A stretch of 18,317 nt of DNA from IMG/VR virus record IMGVR_UViG_2519103024_000008, one strand, 5' to 3'. The stretch comes from a virus. Taxonomy: Duplodnaviria; Heunggongvirae; Uroviricota; Caudoviricetes. Positions 1-12,542 of this stretch are shown in pieces (position 1 is the first letter of the stretch; each line of letters starts with the position of its first letter). The position numbers and the translations under genes were made by a program. The notes below the pieces were generated by a model, which searched no databases, had not been told where the DNA came from, and worked only from the letters and a program-made list of their open reading frames with translations.

Positions 1-171
1 TCAATAAATCCCATCATTGCGATCAACCTCATCCTTAACCATTGATGCGAGCAGTTCTTCCAGTTTCTGCGCTGATAGCTTTACCTGGTGATCTTCAGCA
101 TCTTCCCGGGCTATTGTGGTTCGCGCAGTGGCTGATTTTGCTGACATCACCACAGGGGGCAGACGGACCAT
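1..171 (-). CDS. Hypothetical small protein, about 56 aa (48 aa if it starts at the ATG at 145-147)
   Basis: Minus-strand ORF ending with TGA at 1-3. ATG at 169-171 has GGAGG about 10 nt upstream (revcomp of 182-186). The longer 93-aa ORF in the track (to 282) would run through the hairpin at 238-270, so the shorter start is preferred. No recognisable family. Confidence 0.3.
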   Translation of the reverse strand: MVRLPPVVMSAKSATARTTIAREDAEDHQVKLSAQKLEELLASMVKDEVDRNDGIY

Positions 172-235
172 TGAACCATGGCCTCCGGAACAAATAAGGG
201 CAAAAATAACAACCACTATCGAAAGCTCACAAACT

Positions 236-451
236 AACCGCAGCACGTTCCTGCATACGACGTGTCTGCGGCATAATCCCAATGATTACTCCCTGACAGG
301 ATTTGCAGGCCACTCAATATCAGGTGCAGTTGATGTATCAACACGATTCAACAATACCCGATATTTATTCCATGCCTCCAGCAACGATCTTTCTTCCTCC
401 GTTGCGATTTCCAGATCTACAGCATCCTGCAGTGGCGCAATATACTCACTG
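236..451. repeat. Direct repeat copy A (about 215 bp): 3' end of a tfa-like gene plus downstream hairpin; partner at 1286-1500
   Basis: Aligned by eye to 1286-1500 at roughly 85-90% identity, with one indel in the hairpin arm. Both copies begin at a CCGCAGCACGT inverted-repeat element and extend through the last ~55 codons of a Tfa-family ORF. Confidence 0.7.
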
Positions 452-555
452 AATTCCTGGATGTAGAACTGTGTGGTGACGGTCTTCCAGCCATTCGGCT
501 CCTGCTGTATCGAAGCATACCAGGCTATTTCAATATCGCTATGCTGCGGCAGCAT
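286..555 (-). CDS. Tail fiber assembly protein family, truncated paralog (89 aa; C-terminal Tfa domain with an unrelated 35-aa N-terminus)
   Basis: The C-terminal ~54 aa ([51 protein letters not shown]) are near-identical to the C-terminus of the Tfa at 1335-1919. ATG at 553-555. The layout resembles tfaD-ybcY-tfaX of E. coli K-12 prophage DLP12 (from memory). Confidence 0.6.
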
Positions 556-582
556 TTAACCCCTTGTAATTCATCGCCATAA

Positions 583-611
583 TTGATTTAATTCACAAAT
601 AAAACTATAAC
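583..611 (+). promoter_or_regulatory. Putative sigma70 promoter for the methyltransferase gene (-35 TTGATT at 583-588, 17-nt spacer, -10 TATAAC at 606-611)
   Basis: Hexamers read directly from the sequence in the AT-rich region upstream of the plus-strand ORF. The predicted start site (~618) lies downstream of the ATG at 612, so the ATG at 624 may be the real start with a very short leader. Confidence 0.3.
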
Positions 612-1280
612 ATGGTGAAATCAATGAAAAAAAACACAGATGATGGGGCTAAAATTTACACACCACTTACCCTAAAGCTTTATGACTGGTGGGTTTTGGG
701 AGTATCAAATCGGCTTGCATGGGGATGTCCTACAAAGGAACACCTTCTTCCACACTTTCTGGAACATGTAGGTAACAACCATCTGGATATTGGTGTTGGA
801 ACTGGGTTTTACCTTACTCACGTACCTGAGAGTAGTCTGATATCTTTAATGGATTTGAACGAAGCTAGCCTGAACGCGGCATCTACAAGGGCTGGGGAAT
901 CAAAAATTAAACATAAAATTAGCCATGATGTTTTTGAACCTTATCCCGCGGCGTTACATGGTCAATTTGATTCCATTTCCATGTTTTACCTTCTTCACTG
1001 CCTGCCTGGAAATATATCTACAAAAAGCTGTGTAATACGCAATGCGGCGCAGGCCTTAACTGACGATGGAACTCTATACGGAGCCACAATTCTTGGCGAT
1101 GGAGTTGTGCACAATAGCTTCGGTCAAAAACTGATGCGCATTTACAATCAGAAAGGCATCTTTTCAAACACAAAAGATTCCGAAGAAGGCTTAACACATA
1201 TACTCTCAGAGCATTTCGAGAATGTTAAAACCAAGGTTCAAGGTACTGTAGTAATGTTTTCCGCTTCAGGGAAAAAATAG
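612..1280 (+). CDS. Class I SAM-dependent methyltransferase, YbcY-like prophage moron (222 aa; alternative start at 624)
   Basis: Glycine-rich motif I LDIGVGTGFY, followed by an acidic residue at the end of the next strand (SLISLMDLNE). Only plus-strand gene in the window, visibly AT-rich relative to flanking tail genes, and flanked by direct repeats. Position between two tfa-like genes matches ybcY of DLP12 (recalled). Confidence 0.7.
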   Translation: MVKSMKKNTDDGAKIYTPLTLKLYDWWVLGVSNRLAWGCPTKEHLLPHFLEHVGNNHLDIGVGTGFYLTHVPESSLISLMDLNEASLNAASTRAGESKIKHKISHDVFEPYPAALHGQFDSISMFYLLHCLPGNISTKSCVIRNAAQALTDDGTLYGATILGDGVVHNSFGQKLMRIYNQKGIFSNTKDSEEGLTHILSEHFENVKTKVQGTVVMFSASGKK

Positions 1281-1285
1281 CATCC

Positions 1286-1500
1286 AACCGCAGCACGTTC
1301 TTGCTTAAGACGTGCTGCGGCATAATCCCAATGATTACTCCCTGACAGGGTTCGTAGGCCACTCAATATCAGGTGCAGTTGATGTATCAACACGGTTCAG
1401 CAACACCCGATACTTTTTCCAGGCTTCCAGCAATGAGGTTTCTTCCTCCGTTGCAATTTCCAGATCTGCAGCATCCTGAAGCGGCGCAATATGCTCACTG
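1286..1500. repeat. Direct repeat copy B (about 215 bp): 3' end of tfa plus downstream hairpin; partner at 236-451
   Basis: See copy A. Covers tfa codons for ...[52 protein letters not shown] and about 49 nt downstream. Confidence 0.7.
1288..1320. terminator. Strong stem-loop between convergent methyltransferase (+) and tfa (-) genes; possible bidirectional terminator
   Basis: Perfect inverted repeat CCGCAGCACGT ... ACGTGCTGCGG (11 bp) with 3 further pairs inside the loop. On the minus strand it is followed within ~12 nt by TTTTTT (revcomp of 1272-1277). A degenerate copy lies at 238-270. Confidence 0.4.
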
Positions 1501-1919
1501 GCTACCTGCATCAGGTTGTTTTTTGTTTCTTCCGCCTCCCGGATCCGGAACATTTTTTCTGCTTCCGTATCCTTCACCCAGGCTGTGCCGTTCCACTTCT
1601 GAAACTCCCCTTCCGGCGATAACCAGGTAACATTTTCCGGTAACGGACCGAGTTCAGAAATAAATAACTCGTCCCCTGACGCTACGTCATAAACCGTTTT
1701 ACCCCGATGGTCTTCAACGAGATGCCACGATGCCTCATCACTGTTGAAAACAGCCACAAAGCCAGCAGGAATATCTGGTGGTGCAATATCGGTACTGTTT
1801 GCTGGCAGACCTGTATGAGGCGGAATATATGCGTCACCTTCACCAATAAATTCATTAGTTCCGGCCAGCAGATTATAAATTTTTATGGTCCGTGCTTGTT
1901 CACTCATTCTGAATGCCAT
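1335..1919 (-). CDS. tfa: Tail fiber assembly protein Tfa (194 aa)
   Basis: N-terminus [54 protein letters not shown] matches lambda Tfa as recalled. Its ATG (1917-1919) overlaps the stf stop TAA (1919-1921), implying translational coupling. Confidence 0.9.
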
Positions 1920-4900
1920 TATGCAAGCCTCACAATATAGTTAAATGCGATGTTTTTGACGGTGTTTTCCGCGTTACCAGCAGCGTTAACGGTGATGGTG
2001 TGTCCATGTGAACCAATCGCAACGGAGTGCGTATGCGCACCAATACCTACAGTATGTGCATGTGCGCCAGAACTTGCTGCAGTACCAGACAGCGAGTGGG
2101 TATGAGCACCTGCTGACTGTGTCTGAATACGTTGATAATACGATCTACGGGAAGAAGTCCCCGGGCTTACTTGATACTGTGAATCCTGGACATAAGTGAA
2201 CCCACCGCCATCATAAAATGCTAACGCAGAACCGCCGCCTCCTGGCCAACGAATACCATTACCATGAGTATGATCACCGGCAGACCCCGTAGAGCCACTC
2301 AGACTGTGCGTATGCGCCCCGGTGTTATTCGTGGATTTGGTTCCGTAATCAAACGACGATGTGTTTTTCGTCCCCAAATCCGTACTGGATGCGCTGGCGC
2401 TGTGGGTGTGCGATTTAATGCCGTCCTGTTCCTGAGACAATACGGCACGACCACTGGCGGGTTTGCCCTTAATCGTCCAGCCACGCATATCAGGGATCAC
2501 GCCTGACGGATAAGCGGCTGCAAGTTTTGGGTATGCAGATTTGTCAAAAGTCTGCCCCTGCATCAGGGCATAGCCAGACGGAACGGTATCTGATGGCCAC
2601 GGGATTGGTGCGCCAGGCGGATAAAACTGCTCTGATGGCGTATAGAGTGAATAAACTGTACCGTCCGTTAACCCTTCCGGCTTATTAGCAGAATATGCTG
2701 GTGACGTATGAATCGTCACGCTGGCATTACTGGTATAATCCCATTGAATATTTACACCAGTCGCATAATTTCCGATTGCAACGTAAATATCGTAAGTATC
2801 ACCAGATGTATTGACCCAGGCAAAATTTGTAAACCCTGTCGATGTGCGCTGCCATAAAGCACCAGTAATCCCCTTCGGATTACCATTACCTGCACGCAAA
2901 ACAAGTTCAGATATACCTGCCTGTTGAGGTGACCCCACGTTAAATCCCGCACCACCAATCAACGTAATTGAAACAACAGAACTCGCCTGTGGCATGGTTA
3001 CCGTTGCTAATTTGAACCAACCAGCACCACCGCTGAATGACATTGTTGTTGAGTTAAGCGTACCAATATCTTTCGGCGTCAGTGTTATATCCGCTGAAAG
3101 CGCCTTACCATTCACCTTACGGGCAGAAGGTACCCGACCATTCGCATTATTATTAGCTGCTTTCACTGCTTTCGGTGTCGCGGCAAGCGTTTCAGATGCG
3201 CTGTTNNNNNNNNNNNNNNNNNNNNNNNNNNNNNNNNNNNNNNNNNNNNNNNNNNNNNNNNNNNNNNNNNNNNNNNNNNNNNNNNNNNNNNNNNNNNNNN
3301 NNNNNNNNNNNNNNNNNNNNNNNNNNNNNNNNNNNNNNNNNNNNNNNNNNNNNNNNNNNNNNNNNNNNNNNNNNNNNNNNNNNNNNNNNNNNNNNNNNNN
3401 NNNNNNNNNNNNNNNNNNNNNNNNNNNNNNNNNNNNNNNNNNNNNNNNNNNNNNNNNNNNNNNNNNNNNNNNNNNNNNNNNNNNNNNNNNNNNNNNNNNN
3501 NNNNNNNNNNNNNNNNNNNNNNNNNNNNNNNNNNNNNNNNNNNNNNNNNNNNNNNNNNNNNNNNNNNNNNNNNNNNNNNNNNNNNNNNNNNNNNNNNNNN
3601 NNNNNNNNNNNNNNNNNNNNNNNNNNNNNNNNNNNNNNNNNNNNNNNNNNNNNNNNNNNNNNNNNNNNNNNNNNNNNNNNNNNNNNNNNNNNNNNNNNNN
3701 NNNNNNNNNNNNNNNNNNNNNNNNNNNNNNNNNNNNNNNNNNNNNNNNNNNNNNNNNNNNNNNNNNNNNNNNNNNNNNNNNNNNNNACTCGCGTCGTTGT
3801 CGTAGCGTCCTGAGCAGTATATTTCCCGTTAGCAAGGTCATAGGCTGCCTTTACCGACTTTGGCGTTGCCGCCAGCATTTCAGATGTGCTGTTGGTTGCA
3901 CTACTGAGCTGGACAATTCCTTTTTGTGCTGTCGTAGCGTCCTGAGCAGTATATTTCCCGTTAGCAAGGTCATAGGCTGCCTTTACCGACTTTGGCGTTG
4001 CCGCCAGCATTTCAGATGTGCTGTTGGTCGCGTTGCTAAGCTGAACTATCCCTTTCTGTGCTGTCGTTGCATCCTGTGCGGTGTATTTCCCGTTAGCCAG
4101 CTCATACGCGGCCTTAACGGCTTTTGGCGTTGCCGCCAGTGACTCGGAAGTGCTGTTAGTCGCACTGCTGAGCTGTACTATCCCCTTTTTCGTCGTGCTC
4201 GCATCCTCAAGCGCCACGGCGGATGCAATATCCTCTGCCCGTTTTGCCGCTGTCTCAGCGCGCGTTGCCGCGGATTCCGCCGTACTTTTGCTCTGAGCTG
4301 CCGCCGTCGCACTGCCAGCTGCCTCTGTCGCCTTCGTGGATGCCGTCGTGGCGCTGCCCTTTGCTGCTGACGCCTGTCTGGTCGCCTCATCTTTTGAAGC
4401 AGACGCAGATGATGCCGATGACGCCGCCGAACTGGCGGACGATGCGGCAGCCGTTTTTGAGGATTCTGCGCTGGTTTCCGACGCTTTCGCGTTCGTCTTG
4501 GATGTCTTCGCTGCGGAAGCAGACCTCGCTGCTGCGCTGGCCTGTACAGCGGCTTCGCCAGCCTTCGTTGTGGCTGTTGAAGCAGACGATGCAGCACTTT
4601 CTGCCGATTTTCCGGCGGCGGTGGCACTGGCTGAGGCCTGCCCGGCACTTGTTGACGCGGCACTGGCAGATAATGCAGCCGCTGTTTTTGAGTCTGCCGC
4701 AGCTGAGGCGCTCTGTCCCGCTGCCGTTTCAGAAGACCTGGCGTTCGTCTCGGACGTTTTTGCCGCCTTCGCAGAATTTGCTGCCGCCGTTGCCGAGGAA
4801 GCTGCGCTGCTGGCGCTCGAGGCTGCGTTCGTTTCTGATGATTTTGCCGCCTCTTTTGAAGCCGACGCATCCCGTGCTGAAGTGGCTGCTTCTGACGCTT

Positions 4901-5582
4901 TCGTGGTCGCGGTGGATGCAGAAGTGGCTGCTGATTGTTGTGACGCTGCGGCATTCGTTTCTGACGTTTTCGCGGCACTGGCGCTGGTAGCTGCCGCGCT
5001 TTTTGATGACTCTGCAGCAGCAGCACTTTTTGCTGCTTCACGGGCCTTTGTCGATGCCGTTCCTGCGCTGGAAGACGCTGACTGAGCCGACGACGCGGCC
5101 TGTCCGGCTGACGTGCTGGCGGCACGTGCTGAGGCTGCAGCATCGGTTGCATGAGTTGCCGCCTCGCTGGCTGATGCACTGGCATCGCTGGCTGATTTTT
5201 TCGCGGCTGCCGTATTCTGTGCAACCGCGGAGGCGTTACGTGACACCTCTTCCACCATCTGCTCAAAGCGGCGCAGTGCCTCCGGTCGGACATCATCCTC
5301 CGTCATGGCACCGAGAAAATCATTCAGCGTACCTGGTCTGGAACCTTCATAGACGGTAATGGTCCCGGCATGTGAAGGCGGAAAACCTTCAACCAGCAGG
5401 GTGACGCTGTACTGACCATGCTCAACATCCATGCTGTAACGTCCGGCTTCATCCGGATTTTCAGAGGCCACCGTGTTCACCACCACCGTGCTGCTGGTTC
5501 GTCTGGCCTTCAGCACAATGGTGCAGTTCTGTACTGGTTTTCCTGTGCCATCTTTAAGCACGCCAGAAATTTTTACTGTCAT
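1919..5582 (-). CDS. stf: Side tail fiber protein Stf, interrupted by assembly gap 3206-3786
   Basis: N-terminus [28 protein letters not shown], a long Ala/Ser/Thr-rich low-complexity region, 44-aa [44 protein letters not shown] repeats, and a His-rich C-terminus ([58 protein letters not shown]), all typical of lambda Stf / T4 gp37-type fibers. ATG at 5580-5582. Confidence 0.85.
3206..3786. other. Assembly gap (581 N) inside stf
   Basis: Run of N read directly from the sequence; it abuts a near-identical 132-bp tandem repeat array. Confidence 1.
3787..4196. repeat. Coding tandem repeat array in stf, unit 132 bp (44 aa), at least 3 units (3801-3932, 3933-4064, 4065-4196) plus a partial unit at the gap edge
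   Basis: Units 1 and 2 are nearly identical at DNA level; unit 3 is more diverged. A related motif ([17 protein letters not shown]) reappears on the far side of the gap near 3150-3205. Confidence 0.85.
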
Positions 5583-6400: not shown

Positions 6401-9400
6401 TCAGCTGATACTGATGCCTGCGGTGGCTTTCTTCATCACCACAACCAGCAAATCGCTGATACTTGCTGTGGGATACCAGTTATTCACCAGCCATGCTGAC
6501 ACCGAAAACTCCAGCGTCATGTGGCCGCGACCAGCTGGCATATCAATAACACCACTGTAAATCAGCGTATTATCCAGCGCGGTACGGTTATAAATTTCAG
6601 CACCGTTTTTCCGTACTATCAGGCGGCATGACGAATAAATATCGTTATTCTCCCGCTCATGTTTAGCGCCGCTGAATGCCACCGCCGGAATAACAATCTG
6701 CCGGTCAAACGGCTGATCGTCATAAACCCTGACGGTGATGGTCCCTGATGGCCACCGTTCCGGTGCACGGGAGTCCCGGGGGAAAGCTTTGCCCACTGTT
6801 TTAACGAGATCGCCTTCAATCTGGTTGGCGGACAATTTTCCCAGAACCCGACAGTTCTCGTTAATCGTGACGTTGTTGAGCGTCCCGGAGTTCGCATTCA
6901 CGTTACCGCTGATATCGGCATTTTTCGCCGTCAGCCGCCCGTCCGGTGTCAGGGAAAATGCCGGAGGATTACCGCCGCTGGTAATGGTCGGAGCCGTCAG
7001 GCGTTTCAGGAACACGTCGTTCATGAATATCTGATCGCCCTGACCAACAAACATCGGCTTTGTGTTGCCATTCGCAGGATTAATCATCGCAATCCGGTCA
7101 GCAGCCAGAAGCACCTGACTCTGCATACCTGCTGGCGTATTCTCAATACCGGCTCCGATACCCGCAATATAAAGGCGTCCGTCCTTCATCTGCTGCAGTT
7201 TCACGGCCCACATGCTGTTCAGGTTATTATTTGTATCAACCTGAACTTTCTGTATCTGCTGGATTGCCGCACTCTGGTCTTCCAGTTTTTTATTGACGGT
7301 CTGCGTGATTTCATTGCTGACATTCGTAATGGACGTCCTGATTTCAGCCAGGTCCGGCGCAAGCTGACCGTTATCAATCTGCGTCCACAACTCCTGGGCC
7401 AGATGTGTTTTCCCGATTTCTCCTTTGAAAAAATCCAGGTAACCTTCCGCATCATCGCTCGCCCGACCGACAGCCTCCACGAATGCCGATTTGCCAACGG
7501 TGTTCACACTGCGAACGTAAAAATAATAATCATGGCCCGGTTTGATATTGATACTGGCGGCTATCCAGTACAGCGCCGTACCAAGATAGCGGGCTGTGGT
7601 TTCAACCTGCCTGATATCGGTAATCCGCTTTTCCGAGAACCAGAACTCAAACTGTACCGTCGGGTCATAAACAGCAAGATGCGGCGTGGCGGTTATCTGA
7701 AAATAGCCCGGCGTCAGCTCAATCCTCGACGGTGCTGCCGGTGCGGCAATCCGGAACGATACCGACGCCGGATCGCCCTGCTGCCCCCGGGCATTTACCG
7801 CCCGGACTGTCAGCCTGTAGTTCCCCAGCGCCAGTTGCGTGAAGCGGTATGTGGTTTCCGTCGTCCGGGCCGTGCTGACCAGTCGCTCACTGCCGTCGTC
7901 CGCTGTTACGGTCAGACGGAGCAGGAAGCTCACGCCCTTCACCACCTTCGGTGTGTCCCATCGCGCCAGCACCTGATATTCCCCGCTGTCTGCAGTGACT
8001 TCGGCGGTCAGGTGCTGCACTGCTGGCGGCGTGACACCATTCACCGTGCCGCTCTGGTCACCGTCAAAGTGCGCCCCGTTATCCACGATGGCTTCTTTCT
8101 CCGGTACATGCTGCACGGCGGTGATGGCATACGTGCCGTCATCGTTCTCACGGATACTCACGCAGCGGAACAGGCGCTGGCGCAGCGTCGGCAGCTTCAG
8201 CCCCCACACGCTGTATTCTGCAACGCCGTCAGGAACACGGCTCACTTTCACCTTCACGCCGTCGGTGACGGACTGGACCTCCACGCTGACCGGATTACCC
8301 TGACCGTCAACCAGGCTTATCAGCGTGGTACCGGAGGATGGCAGCGTGATTTCACGGTCGAGCGTCAGCGTCCGGGTCTGGCTGTTCACCGCCAGCACGC
8401 GCCCGCCAATGCTGATCCCCGCATAGTCATCATCGCAGATTTCAATAACATCACCCGGTACATGGCGAAGCCCTTCTGCGCCGACGCTGAAATCCACGGT
8501 CTGCGTCTCCAGCAGTTCCGTTTAATCAGCCACAGCCCGGCGCGGTGTGCCTGCCCCCGGCTGGTCAGCCAAAGGCATCCATCTTCGTGACGTTACGACC
8601 GTAACGGGCAATGGCCTGCGTGTCCTCCACAGCTCTGTCNCCGTCTCCCAGCCGTTATCCGGTCAATCCAGTTCANNNNNNNNNNNNNNNNNNNNNNNNN
8701 NNNNNNNNNNNNNNNNNNNNNNNNNNNNNNNNNNNNNNNNNNNNNNNNNNNNNNNNNNNNNNNNNNNNNNNNNNNNNNNNNNNNNNNNNNNNNNNNNNNN
8801 NNNNNNNNNNNNNNNNNNNNNNNNNNNNNNNNNNNNNNNNNNNNNNNNNNNNNNNNNNNNNNNNNNNNNNNNNNNNNNNNNNNNNNNNNNNNNNNNNNNN
8901 NNNNNNNNNNNNNNNNNNNNNNNNNNNNNNNNNNNNNNNNNNNNNNNNNNNNNNNNNNNNNNNNNNNNNNNNNNNNNNNNNNNNNNNNNNNNNNNNNNNN
9001 NNNNNNNNNNNNNNNNNNNNNNNNNNNNNNNNNNNNNNNNNNNNNNNNNNNNNNNNNNNNNNNNNNNNNNNNNNNNNNNNNNNNNNNNNNNNNNNNNNNN
9101 NNNNNNNNNNNNNNNNNNNNNNNNNNNNNNNNNNNNNNNNNNNNNNNNNNNNNNNNNNNNNNNNNNNNNNNNNNNNNNNNNNNNNNNNNNNNNNNNNNNN
9201 NNNNNNNNNNNNNNNNNNNNNNNNNNNNNNNNNNNNNNNNNNNNNNNNNNNNNNNNNNNNNNNNNNNNNNNNNNNNNNNNNNNNNNNNNNNNNNNNNNNN
9301 NNNNNNNNNNNNNNNNNNNNNNNNNNNNNNNNNNNNNNNNNNNNNNNNNNNNNNNNNNNNNNNNNNNNNNNNNNNNNNNNNNNNNNNNNNNNNNNNNNNN

Positions 9401-9926
9401 NNNNNNNNNNNNNNNNNNNNNNNNNNNNNNNNNNNNNNNNNNNNNNNNNNNNNNNNNNNNNNNNNNNNNNNNNNNNNNNNNNNNNNNNNNNNNNNNNNNN
9501 CTGGATCTGAACCAGCAGGCGGACTTCCGACGGATTCCTGTCCTCCTTTGAGGTGGTTTCCACCAGTGCCTGCACACCGAAGGTAAAGCGCAGACGGTCG
9601 ATGTTTGCCGACGTGATGGTCCGGGTGATCGGCGTGTCATATTTCACTTCCGTACCCAGCACCGTCTCGGAGCCGGAGGATTCAAATCCCTCCGGCGGTG
9701 TCTGCTCCTGCTCACCTGCCCGGAACACCACCGTGACACCGGATATATTGGTATTCCCCTCACTGTCCAGCACCGGCGTACTGTTCAGCAGCACGCTTTT
9801 TAATCCGTCCACCGGACCTTCAACCGGCCCTTCGCTGATGGCATCGATCACACTCAGCAGCTGCGTGGACTTCAGGTTGTCCCTCGCTTCGCGCGGGGTA
9901 TGCCCCTTACTGCTTCCTTTACCCAT
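6401..9926 (-). CDS. J: Tail tip / host-specificity protein J (central tail fiber), interrupted by gap 8676-9500 and with frame breaks in 8498-8675
   Basis: N-terminus [54 protein letters not shown] and the long central region match lambda J as recalled. SD GAGGA precedes the ATG at 9924-9926. The last ~150 aa differ from lambda. The frame is restored by assuming 4 single-base deletions next to the gap. Confidence 0.85.
8676..9500. other. Assembly gap (825 N) inside J; isolated ambiguous base at 8640
   Basis: Run of N read directly from the sequence. Confidence 1.
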
Positions 9927-11788: not shown

Positions 11789-12542
11789 NNNNNNNNNNNN
11801 NNNNNNNNNNNNNNNNNNNNNNNNNNNNNNNNNNNNNNNNNNNNNNNNNNNNNNNNNNNNNNNNNNNNNNNNNNNNNNNNNNNNNNNNNNNNNNNNNNNN
11901 NNNNNNNNNNNNNNNNNNNNNNNNNNNNNNNNNNNNNNNNNNNNNNNNNNNNNNNNNNNNNNNNNNNNNNNNNNNNNNNNNNNNNNNNNNNNNNNNNNNN
12001 NNNNNNNNNNNNNNNNNNNNNNNNNNNNNNNNNNNNNNNNNNNNNNNNNNNNNNNNNNNNNNNNNNNNNNNNNNNNNNNNNNNNNNNNNNNNNNNNNNNN
12101 NNNNNNNNNNNNNNNNNNNNNNNNNNNNNNNNNNNNNNNNNNNNNNNNNNNNNNNNNNNNNNNNNNNNNNNNNNNNNNNNNNNNNNNNNNNNNNNNNNNN
12201 NNNNNNNNNNNNNNNNNNNNNNNNNNNNNNNNNNNNNNNNNNNNNNNNNNNNNNNNNNNNNNNNNNNNNNNNNNNNNNNNNNNNNNNNNNNNNNNNNNNN
12301 NNNNNNNNNNNNNNNNNNNNNNNNNNNNNNNNNNNNNNNNNNNNNNNNNNNNNNNNNNNNNNNNNNNNNNNNNNNNNNNNNNNNNNNNNNNNNNNNNNNN
12401 NNNNNNNNNNNNNNNNNNNNNNNNNNNNNNNNNNNNNNNNNNNNNNNNNNNNNNNNNNNNNNNNNNNNNNNNNNNNNNNNNNNNNNNNNNNNNNNNNNNN
12501 NNNNNNNNNNNNNNNNNNNNNNNNNNNNNNNNNNNNNNNNNN
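11789..12542. other. Assembly gap (754 N) covering the M 3' end and most of L
   Basis: Run of N read directly from the sequence. Confidence 1.

Follow-up and report, generated by a model that had tools for sequence, protein, structure and literature searches.

An intact ybcY-type methyltransferase gene between tail fibre assembly repeats at the end of a lambdoid Escherichia coli prophage

Described systems and comparison with the locus

Phage morons have reportedly been defined for HK97/HK022 and lambda (e.g. lom, bor). Mosaic tail-fibre modules are likewise said to be common to lambda, P2, Mu and P1. Phage lambda carries tfa and a downstream hairpin without a methyltransferase gene. In E. 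coli K-12, the annotation of the prophage DLP12 lists tfaD, ybcY (as a pseudogene), tfaX, appY and ompT. No functional study was found in the literature on ybcY, tfaX and tfaD. In P2, the Z/fun hotspot located past the tail-fibre genes combines mixed cargo with fibre swapping (bioRxiv 10.1101/2024.10.15.618418).

The locus described here is part of a stretch of 18,317 nt (IMG/VR record IMGVR_UViG_2519103024_000008), which is referred to as the window. It is the lambdoid prophage end of a B2 E. coli. Positions 1-2000 are 100% identical to E. coli UTI89, S88, APEC O1 and other genomes, and full identity with the window was found for ST95-type genomes including UTI89. The gene order in UTI89 is J, lom, stf, tfa, methyltransferase, tfa fragment, DUF4376 pseudogene, ompW fragment and yciE-trp. 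Past the window start, the ompW fragment is followed by yciE-trp, indicating that this side of the window is the prophage end. The methyltransferase gene is located directly past the tail-fibre genes, and PGAP labels the locus as a class I SAM-dependent methyltransferase flanked by two tail fibre assembly features.

Compared to K-12, window positions 309-1773 align with tfaX-ybcY-tfaD of DLP12 at 96.9% identity (1465 nt, 2 gaps). A preliminary description of the locus had noted that its arrangement recalls tfaD-ybcY-tfaX. Based on this collinear alignment, the resemblance is true homology. The three genes (b0561-b0563 in K-12), their order and orientation and the ybcY promoter hexamers are the same in both loci. 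However, ybcY of K-12 is a dead gene, since its conserved ATG is changed to ATA and the preceding CAA to TAA, an in-frame stop. In addition, tfaX of DLP12 contains a nonsense codon and the left flank consists of appY-ompT. In the window, in contrast, the methyltransferase is intact, the tfaX homologue (tfa') has a lambda-type tail, and the flank is made up of a DUF4376 relic and, next to it, an ompW fragment. E. coli ybcY, which encodes a small-molecule-type class I SAM-dependent methyltransferase, is present in the window in its intact form.

An intact gene had been implied to be rare, but it turned out to be the common state. When a threshold of at least 95% identity was applied, the unique core of the locus (463-1285) was present in 3798 of 5426 complete E. 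coli genomes (~70%), with up to 4 copies per genome. This distribution makes the locus real but ordinary. The K-12 locus known from annotation is found here in its intact and widespread form. As a typical moron at a hotspot of tail-fibre recombination, it does not constitute a novel type of element. Its reading as a moron in the full sense, i.e. as an accessory gene that is transcribed autonomously, lies distally in the lambdoid late operon and recombines via repeats, is probably correct.

Like the morons of HK97/HK022 and lambda, the methyltransferase is an extra gene amid conserved neighbours, is missing in close relatives and deviates in base composition. It is absent between the same neighbours in lambda and in 20 E. 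coli genomes. The GC content over 501-1300 is 0.38-0.45 compared to 0.49-0.55 in the adjoining tail genes, and the gene is the sole plus-strand gene of the annotated tail region, which is in line with the opposite orientation and AT-rich DNA pointed out before. A candidate promoter of its own, a hairpin as putative terminator and transcription against or independent of the late operon would be further features in common with these morons. Unlike lom- or bor-type morons, the locus encodes an enzyme rather than an envelope protein and is bracketed by 227-bp direct repeats that stem from the neighbouring gene family. With the mosaic tail-fibre modules of lambda, P2, Mu and P1 it shares the use of tfa 3' ends as homology between unrelated phages.

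Organisation of the locus and its repeats

The features identified are listed in Table 1.

Table 1 Features of the methyltransferase locus (window coordinates)
Feature	Position	Strand	Description and evidence
Left flank	1..235	-	DUF4376-type gene relic; PGAP: pseudogene with internal stop (UTI89 annotation)
Upstream direct repeat (U)	236..462	-	Weakened hairpin (238-271) and 3' part of tfa-like ORF; chimeric
tfa' (tfaX homologue)	286..555	-	89-aa ORF, C-terminal Caudo_TAP segment alone; Pfam and PHROG 2341 matches
Candidate promoter region of the methyltransferase	556..611	+	Sequence, consensus scan, K-12 SELEX (PMC3946193)
ybcY-type class I SAM-dependent methyltransferase, intact	612..1280	+	Annotated start 612, likely true start 624
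Downstream direct repeat (D)	1286..1511	-	Hairpin (1288-1320) and last ~55 codons of intact tfa
tfa, intact tail fibre assembly gene	1335..1919	-	194 aa, lambda Tfa type

The repeats U and D are ~227 bp long and ~89% identical, and each copy comprises the last ~55 codons of tfa and a strong hairpin. The repeat search yielded two pairs, 266-462 vs 1315-1511 (197 nt, 89%) and 236-264 vs 1286-1314 (29 nt, 90%), which are parted by a 1-bp indel alone, an extra T at position 265 in the upstream copy. In a MAFFT alignment, the repeats span 236/1286 to ~462/1511 with similarity decaying beyond. The preliminary description had proposed direct repeats of ~215 bp with 85-90% identity. Their direct orientation and identity were borne out, while the length needs to be corrected. 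The concern that the repeats might fail to align proved groundless, given an alignment that holds at ~89% with a single 1-bp indel.

As had been suggested, the downstream copy ends an intact tfa gene, the 194-aa product of which matches Caudo_TAP with an E value of 1e-44 (profile positions 1-130). The D copy reaches ~50 nt past the tfa stop codon and includes the hairpin. Folding energies of the D hairpin are -23 kcal/mol on the plus strand and -28.5 kcal/mol on the minus strand (z about -5.3). The U hairpin is weaker (-17.9 and -24.1 kcal/mol, respectively) because of the 1-bp indel. The D hairpin is common to the convergent tfa and methyltransferase genes and starts 8 nt after the methyltransferase stop codon (1278-1280). 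Termination of the methyltransferase transcript at this hairpin is assumed here, since a U-tract following it is absent from the plus strand.

The upstream copy ends the 89-aa tfa-like ORF, and the unrelated N-terminus ascribed to this ORF was confirmed. Residues 31-86 match positions 75-130 of the 131 positions of Caudo_TAP (E 6e-25), while the ~30 residues preceding this segment are unrelated; the ORF has neither a full-length Caudo_TAP match nor the N-terminal Tfa domain.

The repeat search of the window yielded no inverted-repeat pair of relevance, and no invertase gene is annotated in the UTI89 region. With direct repeats and no invertase at the locus, a relic of an invertible segment of the Gin/Cin/Pin type is ruled out. 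The locus differs in the same respects from invertase-type fibre modules, and the expected outcome of recombination is therefore gain or loss, not switching.

Recombination at tfa 3' ends

The core was also found in 14 phage records, including 2G7b, ev243, PhiR26_1, PhiR29, PhiR30, PhiR49, Turner and Kati, and isolated temperate phages are among these carriers. Homology of the carriers to the window starts at 236, 309 or 331 and ends at 1320, 1455, 1773 or beyond 2000. As placed by the alignments, the mosaic boundaries of the carriers are all located inside the U or D repeats. In PhiR26_1, 2G7b and Turner, the unit lies within an arm with the order int-ompT-hydrolase-tfa'-methyltransferase, and in Turner it is found beside a DNA invertase and a different tfa. 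The tfa-methyltransferase-tfa' unit occurs in lambdoid as well as in P2-like prophages. A P2-like prophage beside smpB harbours the complete trio with a near-identical methyltransferase (dS 0.02), while the repeat part of its tfa' is another allele (dS 0.58). The P2-like trio and the mosaic joints are in line with the known recombination of unrelated phages at the ends of tail-fibre genes and with the cargo and fibre-swapping hotspot of P2.

The origin of the upstream repeat was analysed by aligning the U and D copies of the window, two other ompW-site prophages, PhiR26_1, 2G7b and K-12. At 346-462, U differs from D by variants that are common to all aligned U copies in any phage context and are absent from the adjacent tfa. 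Hence, the tfa' segment moves with the methyltransferase. Left of ~309-331, the U copies vary by context, with a lambda-type tfa end and hairpin in the ompW-site prophages and unrelated sequence in PhiR26_1, 2G7b and K-12. Judged from this alignment, U is chimeric, with 236-~306/330 derived from the resident tfa 3' end and 331-462 from the methyltransferase-linked tfa' allele. A partial local duplication of the adjacent tfa, which had been put forward as a possible origin, was rejected because of the occurrence of the 346-462 variants in carriers of different phages and not in the adjacent tfa.

The tfa' segment is carried on the side of the methyltransferase facing away from the tail genes, while the other side abuts the hairpin and the 3' end of the working tfa. 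Since many phages have conserved tfa 3' ends, the two segments constitute direct repeats of ~227 bp and 89% identity. In the mechanism we propose, these repeats would provide the homology that joins a unit of tfa', promoter, methyltransferase and hairpin to varied tail-fibre modules and prophage ends, and homologous recombination within them could also remove the unit. Conserved tfa 3' ends would thus act as portable homology, by which an accessory gene is moved between lambdoid and P2-like prophages and is gained or lost. The current view of phage genome mosaicism is unchanged by the locus.

Alleles without the cassette were searched for with a synthetic junction, consisting of the left flank and D, against E. 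coli genomes. It was matched in one piece in 20 complete genomes. Each match was 1 nt longer than the query, since the extra T of U is kept. The same left flank was found with the cassette in ~354 genomes. In the cassette-less genomes, the left flank (1-235) is fused straight to tfa via a single chimeric repeat. Nine of these alleles were fetched, all from the yciE/ompW site except for one next to uspF. Each of the nine has U-type sequence up to and including the hairpin and D-type sequence from 346 on. The switch from U to D falls within 266-300 in one allele (L011, strain EFF60) and within 307-345 in the other eight. These two segments, the latter 39 nt in length, are the only uninterrupted blocks of U/D identity longer than 30 nt. 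The position of the junctions in the two longest identity blocks points to homologous recombination. Presence/absence polymorphism with breakpoints inside the repeats had been anticipated in the preliminary description and was observed, so the related prophages do not all carry the identical arrangement. The joints in the repeats and the cassette-less alleles at the same site support its main interpretation, a cassette moved by recombination at tfa 3' ends.

Any direction given for individual gain and loss events is tentative, since no recent carrier/non-carrier pair was found; the closest fetched (L011 vs L021/L022; L012/L013 vs L001) are 1-4% diverged on both sides. For eight of the nine cassette-less alleles, an ancestral state that preceded one crossover with a PhiR26_1-like donor is an equally good fit. 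There is a considerable chance, which we nevertheless put below even, that the cassette-less state is ancestral and that the window arose by gain through a single crossover in 307-345, with deletion being rare or absent. In this case, the 3' end of the resident tfa would have recombined with the tfa' relic of an incoming PhiR26_1-like phage, from which tfa'-methyltransferase-tfa-stf would have been acquired as one arm. In its left part (236-~306), U agrees with the cassette-less alleles, and this part is missing in carriers from other contexts, in which homology starts at 309 or 331. A crossover at 307-345, where the eight alleles switch, would explain this match. 'U-like' states further right are also present in ordinary tfa genes (the D copies of PhiR26_1 and K-12), indicating shared polymorphisms and not conversion tracts. 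The divergence of 11% between U and D has persisted in all carriers and speaks against frequent exchange between the two copies.

However, the allele of EFF60 is not accommodated by gain in this form. It switches earlier, in 266-300, and is D-type at 301-306, and therefore does not represent an ancestor of the U copy of the window. Furthermore, the strains L021 and L022, which bear the cassette, have exactly the same Tfa protein as EFF60, as would be the case for a deletion product. Based on its sequence, EFF60 is better explained as such a product. The numbers of carriers and non-carriers with the same left flank given above also speak against gain alone. A possible loss of the unit by recombination between the repeats, in addition to its acquisition, is part of the reading we prefer.

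The tfa' ORF carried along with the methyltransferase is most likely a relic, left over from an older tail-fibre assembly gene that has lost its 5' part. This interpretation is based on three independent lesions, on the lack of the N-terminal Tfa domain and on a search for longer proteins with the same N-terminus. In K-12, the ORF is interrupted by a nonsense codon, in the isolated phage 2G7b it is damaged by a 7-bp deletion, and in the plaque-forming PhiR26_1 its C-terminal tail is unrelated. Among 800 database matches, no full-length Tfa with the N-terminal 30 residues of the ORF was found, the longer ones being read-through artefacts. PGAP also calls tfa' a pseudogene. It is unlikely that tfa' is instead a working gene, the product of which acts together with the methyltransferase or as a short chaperone of tail fibres, and that the trio forms a functional unit. 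The ORF is intact in many genomes, constitutes its own PHROG family (2341, full-length match) and has been given a candidate tfaX promoter (Shimada et al., PMC3946193). The variant in the P2-like prophage (83% aa identity) has kept start, stop and length and shows an overall dN/dS of 0.21. However, the low ratio is confined to the repeat part (dS 0.58), where it is due to the swap-in of a different tfa 3' end, while the unique N-terminal part of this variant differs by 5 nonsynonymous and 2 synonymous changes.

The predicted methyltransferase and its expression

The plus-strand ORF encodes 222 aa with motif I LDIGVGTGFY, matches Methyltransf_12/23/25/11 of Pfam and belongs to PHROG 2132, a family listed with no assigned function. 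Translation probably starts at ATG 624 rather than at 612, yielding a protein of 218 aa, since residue M5 is invariant in 35 homologues, the majority of homologues are 218 aa long and GGTGA is located 5 nt upstream of this ATG. The AlphaFold2 model (pLDDT 90.3, pTM 0.86) shows a Rossmann-type methyltransferase fold. Typical for class I SAM-dependent methyltransferases, a Rossmann-like seven-strand fold, a glycine-rich motif I and an acidic residue after strand 2 are present. Motif I, the Pfam matches and the predicted SAM-binding fold agree with the earlier assignment as an intact class I enzyme.

A structure-based search for relatives, as recommended in the preliminary description, was performed with Foldseek. 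The best PDB match was 8ys9, the bacterial phosphatidylethanolamine N-methyltransferase PmtA (E 5e-12, TM 0.62-0.68, 15-16% identity). Other top matches were juvenile hormone acid methyltransferase, NodS, CysG and SgvM. All of the solved structures nearest to the model belong to methyltransferases of small molecules or lipids, and tRNA/cap enzymes are confined to the flat tail of the scores. The Rossmann fold and motif I are shared with PmtA (8ys9), JHAMT (7ec0), NodS (3ofj), CysG/BelI (9g0k/9fce) and UbiG (4kdr). An N-terminal YD...N...W lid segment and a size of ~210-220 aa are further features in common with small-molecule class I methyltransferases. However, identity of the window enzyme to the named enzymes is just 13-21%. 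None of the family-specific NCBIfam models reached its threshold (PmtA 15.7/390, RquA 16.9/175 and CpaM 18/180, score/cutoff). The score of 15.7 bits against the equivalog cutoff of 390 places the protein outside the PmtA family.

The dN/dS values of the methyltransferase are 0.21 in comparison with a 90%-identical copy from Citrobacter and 0.11 with a 79%-identical copy from Salmonella. Values of 0.1-0.2 indicate that the gene is under purifying selection. A well-conserved methyltransferase under purifying selection is hence found in most E. coli genomes and in viable temperate phages. Copies with 68-90% identity are located in prophage-remnant or island settings beside DinI, sodC, PerC and tail fragments. 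Homologues at 56-65% aa identity were found in Salmonella, Enterobacter and Erwinia, where they occur singly on the chromosome and away from phage genes.

Based on the structural model and its matches, we conclude that the predicted enzyme is a small-molecule or lipid methyltransferase that constitutes phage-borne cargo. It would act on a small-molecule or lipid substrate and may confer some benefit on the lysogen. A more specific proposal, which we consider improbable, is that it serves lysogenic conversion by methylating an envelope lipid or some other small molecule of the host, and that its site beside the tail-fibre genes reflects selection. If this were true, phosphatidylethanolamine would be a candidate substrate, as for bacterial PmtA, and surface properties, phage receptor access or host interaction could be altered in ~70% of E. 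coli strains. The fixed place by the tail-fibre genes would then be more than a convenient insertion site, e.g. a means of fibre-matched superinfection exclusion.

It is highly improbable that the protein is a DNA or RNA methylase of an anti-restriction or defence system: orphan DNA methylases are frequent in phages, and a hotspot for cargo and defence genes is known past the tail-fibre genes of P2-like phages (bioRxiv 10.1101/2024.10.15.618418), but the (D/N/S)PP(Y/F/W) motif and a target-recognition domain are absent from the 222-aa sequence, no DNA methyltransferase family was matched in Pfam or NCBIfam, the top fold matches are all of the small-molecule or lipid type, and the lone homologues mentioned above have no restriction or defence partner. 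PADLOC yielded a faint mad2 match alone (E 0.009), and membership in a defence system was rejected.

Two candidate promoters precede the methyltransferase gene, TTGATT(583-588)-17-TATAAC(606-611) and TTAACC(556-561)-16-CATAAT(578-583). Consensus matches in the 556-611 region are not enriched over shuffled sequence, and therefore the promoter assignment draws mainly on the SELEX experiment in K-12. In this experiment, genomic SELEX with the RpoD holoenzyme gave a peak in the ybcY/tfaX spacer, for which ybcY promoter hexamers of TTGATT-17-TATAAC were reported (Shimada et al. 2014, PMC3946193). The same spacer was flagged as bound by H-NS (Shimada et al. 2014, PMC3946193). The methyltransferase may thus be expressed in lysogens from its own sigma-70 promoter and be modulated by H-NS. 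The K-12 microarray probe for ybcY shows a response.

Relics and polymorphism at the prophage end

At the end of the prophage, and extending to the left beyond the window, lies a DUF4376 pseudogene interrupted by an internal stop; it adds a third fibre-chaperone-type relic to this end. It is followed by an ompW fragment. The broken 3' ends of earlier fibre modules are stacked at the prophage end. In some prophages at the same site (the yciE/ompW prophage end), the DUF4376 relic and the ompW fragment are separated by an additional ash/Rha regulator pair, which represents a second presence/absence polymorphism at this end of the prophage.

Surroundings of the methyltransferase and its homologues

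A small hypothetical protein (WP_001309429.1, 45 aa) annotated by PGAP overlaps the 3' end of the methyltransferase gene, the hairpin and the stop codon of tfa; the annotation is probably spurious. In one P2-like prophage, the pair of methyltransferase and tfa' (the truncated tfa-like ORF) was found directly after gpD, with no intervening tail-fibre genes, which gives the unit a further rearranged setting. Genes for alpha/beta-hydrolases or carboxylesterases were observed near methyltransferase homologues in three unrelated settings, namely phages (2G7b, PhiR26_1 and Turner), an Erwinia chromosome and an Enterobacter chromosome. This proximity could be due to chance or could reflect a functional pairing.

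Tail genes and masked sequence

The N-terminal part of Stf features three tandem repeats of ~40 aa and a long Ala/Ser-rich stretch. Since masked sequence (runs of N) falls within stf and other tail genes, ORF calls across these runs are unreliable.

Positions of the features discussed (L-numbers, comparison loci from other genomes or phages in their own coordinates)
Feature	Sequence	Position	Strand
WP_001309429.1	window	1225-1362	-
DUF4376 pseudogene	window	1-189	-
DUF4376 pseudogene, continuation	L001	7920-8189	
Stf, N-terminal part	window	3192-5582	-
Masked sequence	window	3206-3786, 8640, 8676-9500, 11789-12542	
ash/Rha pair	L013	5045-5874	
ash/Rha pair	L016	446-1275	
Methyltransferase-tfa' after gpD	L031	2897-5270	
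Methyltransferase homologue near hydrolase/carboxylesterase	L002	2342-3736	
Methyltransferase homologue near hydrolase/carboxylesterase	L003	1614-3098	
Methyltransferase homologue near hydrolase/carboxylesterase	L030	2253-3737	
Methyltransferase homologue near hydrolase/carboxylesterase	L010	4281-5813	
Methyltransferase homologue near hydrolase/carboxylesterase	L006	7584-8414
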